Assembly: GCA_038841535.1 (NCBI GenBank)
Contig: JAWBTQ010000019.1
Location: 1-23,132 of the forward strand
Source of the DNA: Sulfolobales archaeon
Lineage (GTDB): Archaea > Thermoproteota > Thermoprotei_A > Sulfolobales > NBVN01
Direction of reading: 5' to 3'
DNA: 23,132 bases
In this document: piece by piece, positions 12,371-17,036 of the stretch
Position numbering within the stretch: position 1 is the stretch's first letter
How the letters are laid out: each line of letters opens with the position of its first letter
Notes under the pieces: generated by a model
Database searches by the model: none
What the model saw: only the letters and a program-made list of their open reading frames with translations
Told to the model about the DNA's origin: nothing
Program-made: the position numbers and the translations under genes

Positions 12371-13606
12371 GTGGTGATATCTATGACAGTACGTGTAGGC
12401 ATCATTGGGCAGGGGTACGTAGCATCAACACTGGCGCTAGGATTAGCTAGAATTAAGGAGGGAGAGATAGGCCTTAACGGAATTCCGTTTCAGAACTTCA
12501 TTAAGAGCTGTAGAGTTGAGGATGTAGAGATAGTGTCGAGTATAGATGTTGATGCTAACAAGATAGGTTTGTCCCTTCTTGACGTCGCTAGAATGTACTT
12601 CCCTAGTTTGAGTAAGAGGTACGAGTCTTTAGAGGGAATTAGGGTGTCTCCAGGTATACACCTTGGGAGTACCAGAAACCTCCCCGTAAAAGCCGTGGGA
12701 ATAGAGAGTGAAGTAGGTCTAGAAAACGCTATTTACGAAATAGTGAATGAGTGGGACAAGAGTGGTGTTGACGTCTTAGTAAACCTTATTACGACTGAGT
12801 ATACGGAGCCTTTAGAGAGCTTTCACCACTTACATAAGCTAGTTAGATCTAATGAGTACGGAGGTCTTCCAGCGACTTACGCGTACGTATATGCTGCAGC
12901 AGTTTACGCTGAGACCGTGAAGCCAGTAGCGTTCATAAACGCTATTCCTGCTACAGTAGCTAGAAGTAAGTCGATAGTTAAAGCATTCGAGGAGAGGAAC
13001 AGCATTGTTCTGGGGGACGATGGAGCTAGTGGTGCTACACCACTAACTAGTGATATCCTGGAGTATCTAGCCGAGAGAAACAGGGTTCCTAGAGGGGTCG
13101 TGCAGTTTAACATAGGTGGAAACCTCGACTTTCTCGCACTACTGGACGAGACAAGAAACAAGGCGAAAGAAAAGACCAAGAGCACTGTAGTATCTGATGT
13201 TCTGGGCTTCGAGATACCAACCTTCATTAAGCCTACCGGCTACGTGGAGTACTTAGGAGATAAAAAGTTCGTGTCTATGCATATCGAGACCATCGGGTTC
13301 AACGAGTCAATCGACGAAATAGTTGTGAGCGCAAGAATAAACGATAGCCCCGCACTAGCTGGTCTTTTAGTAGACCTCGTTAGGCTAGCTAAAATAGCTC
13401 TTAACTCAGGGTTTAGGGGGACTCTATACGAAATCAACTCTTTCTATATGAAGAGCCCGGGACCTGAGGGATCAAAGTCTATATCTAGGATTGTAGCCTA
13501 CCAGATACTCGTGGACTGGCTCCTGAGGATGGGAGAACTAACGAGATTACCTAGGTACAGTGTACACAACTTCATCCCAGAGCTTAAGAAGATATACGAC
13601 CTATAG
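12371..13606 (+). CDS. ino1: myo-Inositol-1-phosphate synthase (Thermotoga/Pyrococcus type)
   Basis: GQGYVAS, GDDGASGATP, QFNIGGNLDF, GDKKF, RINDSPALAG, FYMKSP. The start may be ATG 12383. Confidence 0.94.
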   Translation: MVISMTVRVGIIGQGYVASTLALGLARIKEGEIGLNGIPFQNFIKSCRVEDVEIVSSIDVDANKIGLSLLDVARMYFPSLSKRYESLEGIRVSPGIHLGSTRNLPVKAVGIESEVGLENAIYEIVNEWDKSGVDVLVNLITTEYTEPLESFHHLHKLVRSNEYGGLPATYAYVYAAAVYAETVKPVAFINAIPATVARSKSIVKAFEERNSIVLGDDGASGATPLTSDILEYLAERNRVPRGVVQFNIGGNLDFLALLDETRNKAKEKTKSTVVSDVLGFEIPTFIKPTGYVEYLGDKKFVSMHIETIGFNESIDEIVVSARINDSPALAGLLVDLVRLAKIALNSGFRGTLYEINSFYMKSPGPEGSKSISRIVAYQILVDWLLRMGELTRLPRYSVHNFIPELKKIYDL

Positions 13607-13611
13607 CTGCC

Positions 13612-14355
13612 ATGATTCAAGAAGCAATAGTTCTCGCAGCGGGATGGGGGGAGAGGTTTAAAAGTAGTGAGCACAAGCTACTCGCTAAAATATTTGGGTA
13701 TCACCTGATCGAGTACCCGATGAGAAGTATAGCGTCTGCGGGGTTACGGAGGCTCCTAATAGTAACTAATGGCTTACTGCTCAAGAAGCTAGAGCATATT
13801 GTGAGAGAAGTAGAGAAAGATATGGGTATAGAAGTAGACTTAGTATTAAACAACGAAGTCAGTAGAGGTAATGCTTACTCACTAGCTCTAGGGCTAAGCA
13901 TAGTAAGAGAAGGGCTAGCCCTAGTTACAGTTGCTGACCACGTCTATCCCTCAACTCTAGTAGAAAGGTTGCTGAAAGGATACAGTAGAGTGTCCCTCGG
14001 GGTTGGTGGAGACAGAGAGCCGAAGCACGTTGAAATATCGGAAGCTACACTCGTGGAAGTAGGTGCTGATGGAGCTATAGAGAACATTGGTAAGAACCTG
14101 AAGTCGTGGAGCTATGTCGACACAGGTCTGCACATAGTTTCGACAGATCTACTAAAGTATACAGGATGCTGTAGATACGAAGGTGAGCTAGCGTCACTAT
14201 ATGAGTGCTTTTCGAGAGCTACACGCCGTAGCGCGGTTATAGACGTCACAGGTAGCCCATGGAAAGATATCGACACGTGGGATGACTACATAAGCATAAC
14301 TCAAGGAAAGAACAGAGTAGTTGCCGCATTCACTATTGAGAGCTGGAGGAAGTAG
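13612..14355 (+). CDS. NTP-transferase, probable CTP:inositol-1-phosphate cytidylyltransferase (IPCT)
   Basis: LAAGWGERF, GNAYSL, DHVY, VDTG, WKDIDT; starts 5 nt after ino1. Confidence 0.85.
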   Translation: MIQEAIVLAAGWGERFKSSEHKLLAKIFGYHLIEYPMRSIASAGLRRLLIVTNGLLLKKLEHIVREVEKDMGIEVDLVLNNEVSRGNAYSLALGLSIVREGLALVTVADHVYPSTLVERLLKGYSRVSLGVGGDREPKHVEISEATLVEVGADGAIENIGKNLKSWSYVDTGLHIVSTDLLKYTGCCRYEGELASLYECFSRATRRSAVIDVTGSPWKDIDTWDDYISITQGKNRVVAAFTIESWRK

Positions 14356-14376
14356 GGTAGTAACATCTAGCGGTTT

Positions 14377-15000
14377 TTAGGCTCGGTTCTTACGGCTCCT
14401 CAACTCCCTCCATGGTCTGTAGCACAGTGAATACCAAAGCCTCTCGATTCTGTCTTTGTTGTGCCTGTAACTGAAAGCCTCTATGAGCTTAGCGAAACTT
14501 ATCCTAATGCTCTTGACTAGAGCCACATCGTCTTCGTAGCTACAAGTTAGTTTCGTAAATAGACCACCGTAATTTTCCTCGATAGAGTGAAGTGGCACTT
14601 CTTCGTACCCCAAGCTACTGAACAACCTTCTTGATCTATAGTTATCAGCTCTAGTCGTAGCTACCACAATATCTGAACCCTCGGCTTCGAGAACATGTTC
14701 TGCAGACGATACAAGGATCAAACCTATTCCTCTCCCTCTGTGCTCCCTCTTAACTACGACATAGTATATTACACCCATTTTGTATCGGGGTTCTAAACTT
14801 AGGGAGTAAAAGAGAGAGGCTCCAAGCGGAGCGTCGGATAGCACCACAAGGCCACGGCAGTAACCTTGCTTAAAGCAGGCCATAGCGTAGTGTGTCTGCC
14901 AGCTCCCCATTCCTTCCTCTATGAGCTCGGCTATGCTTGAAGCTACGGAAGGCTCTGACGAATCTACTTCAACTACCAGTAGTGAGCTCTTGCTCACCAC
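14377..15000 (-). CDS. GNAT family N-acetyltransferase
   Basis: Motif A VVVKREHRGRGIG and motif B NYRSRRLFSSLGY. Confidence 0.9.
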   Translation of the reverse strand: MVSKSSLLVVEVDSSEPSVASSIAELIEEGMGSWQTHYAMACFKQGYCRGLVVLSDAPLGASLFYSLSLEPRYKMGVIYYVVVKREHRGRGIGLILVSSAEHVLEAEGSDIVVATTRADNYRSRRLFSSLGYEEVPLHSIEENYGGLFTKLTCSYEDDVALVKSIRISFAKLIEAFSYRHNKDRIERLWYSLCYRPWRELRSRKNRA

Positions 15001-15004
15001 CGGT

Positions 15005-15367
15005 TCAGCCTCTATATGTAAAGCCTACCTTATATGACCTCGGCTTTAAGACAGCTTTAACCCTCTTAAATATTCTAGCTGGATCGTGGTCCCCCGTTAC
15101 GAGGACGTCTAGAGTAGCGTATCTGTACTCTACCCACGTATGTATTACTACGTGAGCTCCTTCAAGAACGGCGATTACTGAGACACCCCCTTTTTTACCA
15201 CCAAAACTCCAGGACTTTACATCGACTACATTTATTCCTTCTTGCTTTAGTGCTTCCAATACAGAGTCGGCTAGGATGCGCTCATCTCCCAGTAGGCTTG
15301 GGTCAGCATCATATAGGTTTGCGTAAAGGTGCTTACCGACGGGTAAGTAAGCTGACGAACCCCCCAT
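15005..15367 (-). CDS. Pyruvoyl-dependent arginine/SAM decarboxylase (SpeD fold) homolog with catalytic residues substituted
   Basis: GKHLYANLYD, WSFGGKKGGVSVIA and HTWVEYRYATLDV match the crenarchaeal ArgDC paralog as I recall it, but ESH is GAH and TCG is VTG. Confidence 0.88.
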   Translation of the reverse strand: MGGSSAYLPVGKHLYANLYDADPSLLGDERILADSVLEALKQEGINVVDVKSWSFGGKKGGVSVIAVLEGAHVVIHTWVEYRYATLDVLVTGDHDPARIFKRVKAVLKPRSYKVGFTYRG

Positions 15368-15382
15368 AACATAGACCTCGAA

Positions 15383-15856
15383 TCAGCTAGTACTAGCTGA
15401 CTTAGCTCCATACATCTTCTTCAGTATGGTATATAAGGTTACTGCTATAGTCGCTTGAGGTGGAGAATCGCTCGGTAGCTCTGGGATGGAAAGTGCCTCC
15501 ACTGGGATTTCGCTTCTCCCATGCTCGTCACCGGTAAAGATGAGCGCGTAATTGGATTCTTCAAGCTCGACGTCCTCTAACCTTCGAAGGTCGTTCTGCC
15601 CTGGAACAACTAAGTATACCTTATCAAAGCTGAAGTATTCGAACACCTCCTTGATACCTGATAGTACTACTAAAGGTTTACCATACCTTAGTGCGACCTT
15701 GTACGCCTCCGGTACTCCAACTTGAGATGCGAGACCAGTGGACCTAACGACTACAAACATACCGACGTTAACTCCCTTAAATCCATATGCTACCCTAACT
15801 GACTCCACTAACCTGTGAGGTGACGTTACTCCAGAGAGCACGATCGTTAGCGGCAG
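15383..15856 (-). CDS. DUF2122/COG4080 family protein (SPOUT-like; often annotated RecB-family nuclease)
   Basis: TSPHRLVE...GLASQVGVPEAYKVALRYGKPLVVL resembles the family's AAQSGVPE motif. Track start is 15841; a CTG at 15856 has a better SD. Confidence 0.72.
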   Translation of the reverse strand: MPLTIVLSGVTSPHRLVESVRVAYGFKGVNVGMFVVVRSTGLASQVGVPEAYKVALRYGKPLVVLSGIKEVFEYFSFDKVYLVVPGQNDLRRLEDVELEESNYALIFTGDEHGRSEIPVEALSIPELPSDSPPQATIAVTLYTILKKMYGAKSASTS

Positions 15857-15866
15857 AGTGCTCCCC

Positions 15867-17036
15867 CTATATGCTTATCCGCTGGTTAAACTGGTCTTTT
15901 CTACTTGTATGCCTCCCGGATAGGTACTTCTCTATAGCCATGAGGAAGTCGCTCATGTTAACAGTCTCAGCCCCGCGTCTAATGGCATTGTAGCCTGCTT
16001 CAGTACAGATAGTCTTTATATCTGCTCCACAAAGTCCCTCAGATAGCTTTGCCAGCCTCCAGAGATCTACGTCACTTGCTAGAGCCATTTTAGACGTGTG
16101 TATCTTGAATATCTCGTACCTCCCTGTTACGTCAGGGGGAGGCACCTCTATTAGCCTATCGAACCTACCCGGCCTAAGGAGAGCTGGGTCTACGATATCA
16201 ACTCTATTAGTAGCCGCCATGATCTTTACTCTATCTAGAGGGTCGAAGCCATCGATCTCTACAAGGAGTTGTGAGAGTGTTCGATGTATTTCCCTCTCAC
16301 CAGACGTTCCTACGTCAACCCTTTTTGCTCCAATAGCGTCTAACTCGTCGATAAACACTATCGCTGGAGCTTTGCGTCTAGCTAGCTTAAACACTTCTCT
16401 CACTACTCTAGCCCCCTCCCCGACGAACTTCTGAGCAAGCTCTGATGCTGCTAACCTAATAAAAGTGGCTCTGACTTCACCAGCTACTGCTTTAGCCAAG
16501 AGGGTCTTACCGCAGCCTGGGGGTCCATAGAGTAACACACCCTTGGGAGGCTCTATACCTAGCCTAGAGAAAAGCTCGGGTGATTTAAGTGGAAGCTCCA
16601 CGACTTCTCTAAGCTCTCTAACCTGGTCATGGAGCCCACCAACATCCTTAAACGTGGTCTTAGGTCTTTCATCTATCTCCATGGCCTTCACATAGTAGTC
16701 TTCAACTATCGGAAGAACCTCGACTATAGCTGACCCTCGCTGGTTTAGTGCTACATGAATGCCCGGCTTAAGCTTTGAAGTATCGACGAAACCACTTACA
16801 TTGACAACTAGGGTAGGCCCAGTACTACTCCTAACAACTGCTCTTCCGTCTTCTAGAAGCTCTAGTAGAACTGCTTCTACGAGAGGAGAAGCCATGAGCT
16901 TATCTATTTCTCCCTTGTAGTAGTTGAGCTCTCTCCTCAGGAACTCGACTTCGGCCTCGAGCTGGTGTACTCTCTCTTCCAAGTACTTAGCGTACTCGAA
17001 GATGTTGCTCTTCCTATCGCTGCTTATGTAGCTCAA
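15867..17036 (-). CDS. pan: Proteasome-activating nucleotidase
   Basis: N-terminal coiled coil, OB domain (VRSSTGP), [14 protein letters not shown] pore loop, [25 protein letters not shown]. Confidence 0.95.

Follow-up and report, generated by a model that had tools for sequence, protein, structure and literature searches.

A catalytically dead SpeD paralog conserved in a genus of Sulfolobales, and its possible partner in arginine decarboxylation

Can a pyruvoyl-dependent decarboxylase that has lost the residues for making its cofactor still have a part in polyamine synthesis? The question is raised by an open reading frame (ORF) of 120 aa, beginning with ATG, at positions 15005..15367 on the minus strand of a 23,132 nt stretch of DNA from a Sulfolobales archaeon (lineage NBVN01; GenBank assembly GCA_038841535.1, contig JAWBTQ010000019.1, positions 1 to 23,132), the whole of which is referred to here as the window. 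The encoded protein belongs to the S-adenosylmethionine decarboxylase (AdoMetDC) family PF02675, and we describe it as a dead SpeD-fold paralog from the branch of the crenarchaeal pyruvoyl arginine decarboxylases (ArgDC). A preliminary description of the window had proposed a pseudo-enzyme lacking both the self-cleavage serine and the catalytic cysteine, perhaps a ligand sensor or prozyme-like regulator, possibly acting with the GNAT acetyltransferase encoded just downstream. The reading developed below is that the dead protein would be the non-catalytic subunit of a heterodimeric pyruvoyl ArgDC, formed with another SpeD homolog of the same genus (the third paralog) in an unfused layout resembling that of class 2 enzymes. 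We give this an even chance of being correct.

A full-length SpeD-fold protein without the catalytic residues

The profile PF02675 (AdoMet_dc) covers the protein from end to end (profile positions 1-107 of 107; 88.3 bits, cut-off 25), and its translation contains no cysteine, so the ORF is, as first described, of full length and Cys-free. The sequences of solved structures that it matches best are those of the Thermotoga maritima AdoMetDC, in the wild-type form (1tlu, E 4e-13) and as the S63A variant (1tmi, E 2e-13). In the HMMER alignment to both, Gly-Ala-His stands against Glu62-Ser63-His and Thr-Gly against Cys83-Gly. Located by a position ruler and by alignment, the self-cleavage site (Glu62-Ser63 in T. 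maritima) is occupied by Gly70-Ala71 (15155..15160, minus strand; GGA at 15160-15158 and GCT at 15157-15155), followed by His72 (CAC, 15154-15152). Leu89-Val90-Thr91 (15095..15103, minus strand; ACG of Thr91 at 15097-15095) stand in place of the Tyr-Thr-Cys of the TCG motif, which includes T. maritima Cys83. The alanine and threonine codons named in the preliminary description were exact.

A pyruvoyl group cannot form from alanine. Sequence comparison finds three features of active decarboxylases to be absent from the dead protein: the pyruvoyl serine, the glutamate that precedes it, and the catalytic cysteine. In T. maritima, Glu62 before Ser63 is the general base (PMC3975893), and the catalytic cysteine is Cys83 (PMC10407285). 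The histidine of the HTW motif (T. maritima His68), also a feature of the active enzymes, is retained as the invariant His76. It begins a conserved His76-Thr77-Trp78-Val79-Glu80 motif (15128..15142, minus strand; T. maritima His68 onward), for which we propose a role in trans, on the active site of a partner. Also kept is the Gly56-Gly-Lys-Lys-Gly-Gly-Val-Ser63 loop (15179..15202, minus strand), whose Ser63 is the equivalent of T. maritima Ser55. The proline of HTWPE that defines AdoMetDC was not found in the protein, Val79 being there instead. Since the Glu-Ser, Tyr-Thr-Cys and C-terminal motifs are all replaced, no self-processing is to be expected, and the core of the original proposal, that decarboxylation by the canonical mechanism would be impossible with Gly-Ala for Glu-Ser and Thr for Cys, holds. 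At the level of sequence the protein is confirmed as a full-length pseudoenzyme of the class 1b SpeD fold, which would neither form a pyruvoyl group nor make the canonical use of a cysteine.

The predicted structure agrees with this assignment. An AlphaFold model based on a 54-row alignment (mean predicted local distance difference test, pLDDT, 92.1; predicted template modelling score, pTM, 0.84) has the alpha-beta half-sandwich that characterizes class 1b of the SpeD/AdoMetDC superfamily, and the predicted fold superposes on 1tmi_A and 1tlu_A with a template modelling (TM) score of 0.88-0.90 and a root-mean-square deviation of 1.1-1.2 Å. In the model, Gly70-Ala71 sit at the turn of a hairpin whose strands are residues 61-68 and 71-78, and Ser63 lies opposite His76, about 5 residues (roughly 17 Å) down the strands from the turn of its own chain.

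The substitutions are widely shared among close relatives. Among the 120 best matches listed, which came from 5.8 billion clustered proteins, all 27 full-length relatives designated P0001-P0027 (62-98% identity) carry Gly-Ala-His. The cysteine position holds Thr in 26 of them and Ala in the remaining one, and 25 are entirely free of Cys. One further relative, P0028, is a 69-residue fragment that stops short of the motif, and 91 of the other 92 listed relatives have Glu-Ser-His together with Thr-Cys-Gly. The exception, P0063 from a Thermoprotei metagenome-assembled genome, has Gly-Ser-His and is without the Cys. In a search of 41 related genomes, each of the 10 that belong to the genus yielded an ortholog of the dead gene (65-98% identity), always with Gly-Ala-His and without an internal stop; the genomes are metagenome bins, 79-97% complete (83.8% for the window's own genome, G000, and 97% for G005). 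The stretch is also present in hot-spring metagenome runs from several studies, and in one of them (X11, not flagged as a possible source) a 744 nt contig spans 14795-15538 with zero differences. The substitutions are beyond chance, and are neither an assembly artefact nor a private mutation.

Selection was gauged by pairwise Nei-Gojobori comparison of 45 genome pairs, most of which were saturated; the 6 pairs with synonymous divergence (dS) below 1 were used. In these, the ratio of non-synonymous divergence (dN) to dS for the dead gene was 0.067, 0.080, 0.086, 0.145, 0.223 and 0.319. The corresponding ranges were 0.025-0.150 for the third paralog and 0.025-0.172 for AdoMetDC, two of these comparison values having dS above 1. 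Between the main lineages, dN is about 0.25-0.30 for the dead gene against about 0.10-0.15 for AdoMetDC. The low dN/dS of the dead gene argues for purifying selection, somewhat relaxed, and 33 columns are invariant over 37 dead-clade sequences even though identity to the window protein falls to 62% in the most distant representatives. In the window itself, the stop codon at 15005-15007 cuts off a 12-residue tail found in the closest relatives, P0001 and P0002 (132 aa), in which it overlaps the start of the GNAT gene by 32 nt; the tail varies among relatives, and its loss is therefore probably harmless. It is very improbable that the gene is decaying, or that its protein still decarboxylates by some unorthodox route. 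A dN about twice that of its paralogs and the missing tail would fit such an explanation, but the reading frame is uninterrupted in all ten genomes, dN/dS falls well short of 1, the invariant columns persist, alanine gives no pyruvoyl group and the lost tail is not a conserved one.

Three paralogs with complementary losses

G000 has three PF02675 genes: the dead one on contig C19, one of AdoMetDC type on C3, and the third paralog on C1 (198839-199144, minus strand). The C3 gene specifies Leu-Glu-Ser-His, HTWPEY and Ser-Cys-Gly, as is typical of AdoMetDC; it adjoins a divergently oriented gene for IF-5A (locus L001; 559-960 on the minus strand, 1414-1830 on the plus strand), a factor whose hypusination requires spermidine. 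The proline in HTWPE separates AdoMetDC from the SpeD-type arginine decarboxylase, or ADC (PMC10407285). The third paralog specifies Glu-Glu-Ser-His and Thr-Cys-Gly, and has HVYKGY where the others have HTWxEY. Each of the ten genomes of the genus, the 97%-complete G005 included, has three SpeD homologs and no more, one of them a normal AdoMetDC and the others the dead copy and the third paralog; the search of 41 genomes found a canonical ArgDC-like copy in none of the ten. Neither the dead nor the third type occurred among the copies fetched from the 31 genomes outside the genus. Among the checks proposed in the preliminary description were conservation in orthologs, dN/dS, and an active paralog elsewhere in the genome, and each of these came out in its favor: Gly-Ala-His is not unique to the assembly (27/27 relatives and 10/10 genomes), selection is purifying (0.07-0.32 in the six unsaturated pairs), and two of the three PF02675 genes of G000 retain Glu-Ser and Cys, as do two of three in all ten genomes of the genus.

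The dead protein's own ancestry lies with the arginine decarboxylases. Its best non-dead relatives among the 120 listed (43-55% identity) include proteins from Metallosphaera and Sulfolobus acidocaldarius named 'arginine decarboxylase proenzyme' by their sources. A maximum-likelihood tree was built from 70 SpeD homologs, comprising all three copies of the 10 genus genomes, the best match of 20 others and 20 further copies. AdoMetDC-type sequences split from the rest with a Shimodaira-Hasegawa-like approximate likelihood ratio test (SH-aLRT) support of 98, and the 10 dead and 10 third sequences each form one clade (SH-aLRT 100 for both) on the ArgDC-like side, with stem lengths of 1.73 (dead) and 1.76 (third) substitutions per site. 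No placement of a sister group to the third clade was supported in this tree. A tree holding the dead and third sequences as a single clade was not rejected by the approximately unbiased (AU) test (p 0.573), and was 5.09 log-likelihood units better than the one from the quick free search. Descent of the dead protein from the crenarchaeal ArgDC branch, rather than from AdoMetDC, is supported by these comparisons. The nearest known type in sequence is the SpeD-derived ADC of crenarchaea (S. solfataricus type; Giles and Graham 2008, as cited in PMC10407285), with which the dead protein shares HTWxEY lacking the AdoMetDC-specific proline, and the GGKKGGVS loop. It differs in having Glu-Ser, Tyr-Thr-Cys and the C-terminal Ala-Asp-Arg-Ser replaced, and one residue deleted after TCG. 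All three paralogs pass the cut-off of the NCBIfam AdoMetDC equivalog TIGR03330 (88.1 bits for the dead protein, cut-off 75.65) and are labeled 'adenosylmethionine decarboxylase' by their sources; for the dead protein at least, this name is very probably wrong. In four other genera of the family (G010, G017, G018 and G020; loci L014/L052, L020/L054, L019/L056 and L058/L059, respectively) there are two intact ArgDC-like copies in addition to AdoMetDC, so the ArgDC branch must also have undergone an older duplication.

To compare the groups column by column, distinct sequences were pooled (37 dead, 115 ArgDC-like, 25 third and 24 AdoMetDC-type). The positions that are invariant in the three active groups and changed in the dead clade only are E70 (to G), S71 (A), Y89 (L), T90 (V), C91 (T), D118 (Y) and S120 (G), and one residue is deleted after residue 94. 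Gly70 and Ala71 are found in 37/37 dead-clade sequences, with Glu and Ser at 100% in the three active clades; likewise Leu89 (1.00), Val90 (0.97) and Thr91 (0.95) of the dead clade face Tyr (1.00), Thr/Ser (1.00) and Cys (1.00). A different set of columns, invariant in the ArgDC-like and dead sequences and mostly also in AdoMetDC, is changed in the third clade only. These are N17 (to E), W53 (Y), G57 (T), K59 (Y), V64 (A), T77 (V; Val 0.88), W78 (Y; Tyr 0.76) and E80 (G; Gly 0.88), along with G61-V62-S63, which is deleted in all 25 sequences. The dead clade keeps W53, G57, K59, G61-V62-S63, T77, W78 and E80 at 0.97-1.00. Within it, His76, Thr77 and Trp78 stand at 1.00 and Glu80 at 0.97, and Gly57, Lys59, Gly60, Gly61 and Ser63 are at 1.00 in both the dead and the ArgDC-like clades. 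Common to all groups are H72, H76, D87, G92, P96 and R119. The 24 AdoMetDC-type sequences all have the proline of HTWPE (1.00), which occurs in neither the dead nor the ArgDC-like clade. Each of the two paralogs has therefore lost what the other kept, and the dead and third clades display the division of Ser plus Cys versus HTWxE between two halves. The halves are not joined on one polypeptide as they are in class 2 enzymes, the dead and third genes being separate, on contigs C19 and C1 of G000.

How such halves could cooperate is suggested by the architecture of the family. The sheets of class 1b protomers pack face to face, and in eukaryotes the same sandwich is one chain (PMC5201418, PMC10407285). 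T. maritima Ser63 corresponds to human Ser68 and Ser55 to human Ser229, and human His243 is needed for the second processing step (PMC3975893). Going by residue number, Ser68 falls within the first half of the human protein and both Ser229 and His243 within the second, so the equivalents of Ser55 and His68 should serve the cleavage site of the other protomer; and given that Ser63 and His76 lie some 5 residues from the turn in the model, they would be unable to reach the cleavage site of their own chain. We propose a face-to-face pairing of the dead protein with the third paralog, itself specific to the genus, of the sort that class 1b protomers normally make with each other. The third paralog would contribute the cis elements, Glu-Ser as the source of the pyruvoyl group and Tyr-Thr-Cys-Gly, and from the dead protein would come the trans elements now missing from the third, namely the Gly-Val-Ser loop together with Thr, Trp and Glu of His-Thr-Trp-x-Glu, the His68-equivalent histidine staying in both. 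Such a heterodimer would have one complete ArgDC site and one vestigial site, and its product would be agmatine, for use by agmatinase and TiaS.

Natural fusions offer a comparison. We screened 149 representatives (P0156-P0304) of the 150 best 50%-identity clusters, giving 154 SpeD domains with the query's included, of which 126 have Glu-Ser, His and Cys. Six of the proteins contain two aligned SpeD domains, and as these are in one chain the halves must pair within it. The complementary split is seen in four of the six. In P0206, the half with Ser and Cys has HAFxL for HTWxE, and the other half has Gly-Ala and Leu-Val-Phe-Gly but keeps Gly-Val-Ser and HTWxE. The Ser- and Cys-bearing half of P0163 has T for W and S for E, that of P0261 has Q for E, and that of P0177 has L for T and G for E; their opposite halves all keep HTWxE and are, respectively, without Glu and Cys, with Arg-Ala and no Cys, and with Gly-Ser. 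P0179 has the complementary pattern in part only, and P0214 is uninformative.

Standalone SpeD homologs without the cleavage serine numbered 6 of the 149 (P0162, P0173, P0175, P0299, P0190 and P0231), most of them with an HTW-type motif, and the Ser-less clusters include one named Ca. Marsarchaeota and one named Inquilinus limosus; dead SpeD copies may have arisen several times. One genome, G041, which holds P0173 (reached through L093), has just two SpeD homologs (L094 and L095), one Ser-less and the other with Ser and Cys and with HTMTK for HTWxE. The dead copy there has also lost the Glu, and G041 as a second, independent complementary pair is suggestive only.

That standalone Ser-less proteins occur in unrelated lineages would suit another explanation, in which the dead protein forms homodimers, is no enzyme, and has taken on a new role that has nothing to do with its paralogs, such as that of a small-molecule sensor or scaffold. 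Purifying selection and the intact predicted fold are equally in keeping with it, and a structure search also matched the N-terminal domain of human spermine synthase (3c6k; TMq 0.53-0.55), a non-catalytic SpeD-like fold that serves dimerization and would be a parallel case. That domain is fused to an aminopropyltransferase and has no sequence relationship to the dead protein beyond the fold. A homodimeric role seems unlikely to us, as it would account neither for the strict co-occurrence with an oppositely degenerated third paralog (10/10) nor for a genus left without a canonical ArgDC.

The heterodimer would fill a metabolic need. Agmatinase-family genes were found in all 41 genomes searched, including the 10 of the genus, and G000 encodes an aminopropyltransferase and TiaS, which uses agmatine to modify tRNA-Ile (agmatidine). 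No match to PdaD was found in G000 at its 83.8% completeness. OKR_DC_1 was considered as a replacement ArgDC and set aside, the match in G000 falling below the family cut-off. G000 does have two LysA-like pyridoxal phosphate-dependent decarboxylases of the alanine-racemase fold (C27:2086-2778 and C2:88697-89416; L089 and L090), of 413 aa each and scoring 414 and 372 bits with TIGR01048, whose substrate may be ornithine, lysine or something else, and not diaminopimelate. The family occurs in 9/10 genus genomes and in 7/31 other relatives, and as those 7 keep a normal ArgDC-like gene, it is no clean substitute for ArgDC. ArgDC activity is needed in the genus, and there is no other obvious source.

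Several points weigh against a dead/third heterodimer. A diamine, or even agmatine, could in principle come from the LysA-like enzymes, which leave the largest gap in the case that agmatine has to be made by the third paralog. With His72 and His76 still in place, that paralog might remain able to mature and act as a homodimer, perhaps on a different substrate. In G000 the dead and third genes lie without linkage on different contigs (C19 and C1), in G003 they are 10 kb apart, and the non-synonymous rate of the dead clade is, as noted, about double that of its two paralogs. Action of Ser55 and His68 across the dimer interface was reportedly described for T. maritima by Toms et al. in 2004; otherwise it is deduced from geometry and the human equivalences.

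The GNAT neighbor and the surrounding genes

Directly downstream of the dead gene, and starting 4 nt past its stop codon, is the gene for the GNAT acetyltransferase (14377..15000, minus strand; 207 aa, GTG start; PF00583 44.4 bits, PF08445 43.3 bits). An ortholog (51-98% identity) occupies the same place in 9/10 genus genomes, and the pair is intact in G003 and G004 despite rearrangement of the genes that lie upstream in the window. In five genomes the two genes share 4, 14 or 32 nt; in three others the start of the aligned GNAT region is no more than about 30 nt from the stop of the dead gene. They are probably co-transcribed, to judge from this spacing, and the conserved gene order argues for a functional link between them. 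This GNAT was absent from the surroundings of active ArgDC-like genes at 20 loci in other genera.

These observations favor an explanation in which the dead protein is a ligand-binding module working with the GNAT. Its vestigial pocket would take up arginine, agmatine or a polyamine, and the protein would present this ligand to the acetyltransferase or regulate that enzyme. Alternatively, the GNAT could be an acetyl-CoA-dependent maturation or regulatory factor of a pyruvoyl enzyme, in the way that the GNAT-type factor PanZ/PanM acts on PanD. We consider this doubtful, though not far-fetched. In G005 the dead gene lies between hydrogenase-like and carboxylase genes, and the best GNAT match is only 35% identical and on another contig. 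The GNAT family is also present, in unrelated contexts, in 12/31 relatives outside the genus that have no dead paralog, and the contexts of 34-39% identical homologs at five other loci revealed no polyamine link. At E values up to 0.01 the GNAT had no relative by sequence in the PDB, and the 6 Pfam families that it matched did not include PanZ. Complex prediction for the GNAT and the dead protein, run without controls, scored 0.03 and 0.00 against a mark of 0.32 and carries no weight on either side. A module of this kind would also leave the complementary losses in the third paralog unexplained. The link to the GNAT first suggested is real as conserved gene order (9/10), physical partnering being at most a possibility, and the sequence evidence points to the third paralog instead as the partner of the dead protein.

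Within the GNAT family four cysteines outside the usual motifs are conserved across 22 sequences (Cys42/Cys48 nearly invariant, Cys153/Cys193 invariant) and may form a metal or redox site; there is also a conserved C-terminal W-x-x-x-C-Y-x-P-W tail. Upstream of the dead gene, on the same strand, are a DUF2122 gene (RecB-family nuclease-like; 15383..15841, minus strand; PF09895 60 bits), which is directly upstream in 7/10 genus loci, and a gene for a PAN-like proteasome-activating AAA ATPase (15867..17036, minus strand; PF00004 143 bits, PF16450 55.5 bits); these are the two rearranged in G003 and G004. In a metatranscriptome run from sediment (X20), two contigs of 2137 and 1841 nt from a relative of about 95% identity together cover 14300-15900 (GNAT, dead gene and DUF2122), which is not proof of transcription. 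On the plus strand at 12371-14355, a myo-inositol-1-phosphate synthase gene is directly followed by an NTP-transferase gene, a pair that would presumably be in keeping with a thermophile making an inositol-phosphate compatible solute.

Comparison with known systems and significance

In eukaryotes there are known cases of polyamine enzymes controlled by a dead paralog, among them the AdoMetDC prozyme, a dead paralog of deoxyhypusine synthase (DHS) and antizyme inhibitor. The trypanosomatid prozyme (PMC5201418) resembles the present case in being a maintained dead paralog of a polyamine pyruvoyl decarboxylase beside an active enzyme. However, it is a full class 2 protein of eukaryotic and independent origin, and it relieves the autoinhibition of its partner by edge-to-edge dimerization and completes no active site (PMC5201418), so the mechanism of the dead protein is probably a different one. 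A prozyme-like or dominant-negative regulator, forming a heterodimer with AdoMetDC or the third paralog and acting allosterically without giving any active-site residues, nevertheless deserves consideration, since every genome of the genus has the dead paralog beside active ones, precedents exist (the AdoMetDC prozyme and the dead DHS paralog; PMC5201418, PMC3663545), and an operon of its own would permit the dead gene to be controlled separately. We think it improbable: the AdoMetDC of the genus is short-branched, with cis and trans motifs intact and no sign of adaptation to a partner, and the invariance of S63, H72, H76, T77 and W78 would be unexplained for a purely allosteric subunit.

Parallels to a dead/third heterodimer are found in class 2 AdoMetDC, which consists of two fused class 1b halves, the C-terminal one without a cleavage site (PMC10407285, PMC5201418), and in the bacterial Victivallis vadensis fusion, which has a dead second domain and is an active AdoMetDC (PMC10407285). 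In these, as in the pairing proposed here, one half has the pyruvoyl Ser and Cys and the other is without the cleavage site and still part of the sandwich. The difference is that the dead and third genes are separate and unlinked, of about 115-120 codons, and of the ArgDC rather than the AdoMetDC lineage. No SpeD fusion was detected in extant archaea according to the available text of PMC10407285, which describes fused dead domains only, and nothing in the open-access literature searched describes a dead SpeD homolog that stands alone, whether archaeal or bacterial. A more speculative extension, to which we attach little probability, is that the two genes represent a living intermediate toward class 2 AdoMetDC, in which the vestigial site is allosteric and the GNAT ties the maturation or activity of the enzyme to the status of acetyl-CoA or polyamines, a logic like that of PanD-PanZ evolved independently in archaea.

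The dead protein and the third paralog may well be a pseudoenzyme partnership in polyamine synthesis, a variation on a kind already known. If the heterodimer is real, the genus would show the unfused division of one homodimer active site between two gene copies, a step from which the class 2 enzyme of eukaryotes is assumed to have followed. The source of agmatine would also be revealed, for the agmatidine of tRNA-Ile and for putrescine, in a lineage without a canonical ArgDC.

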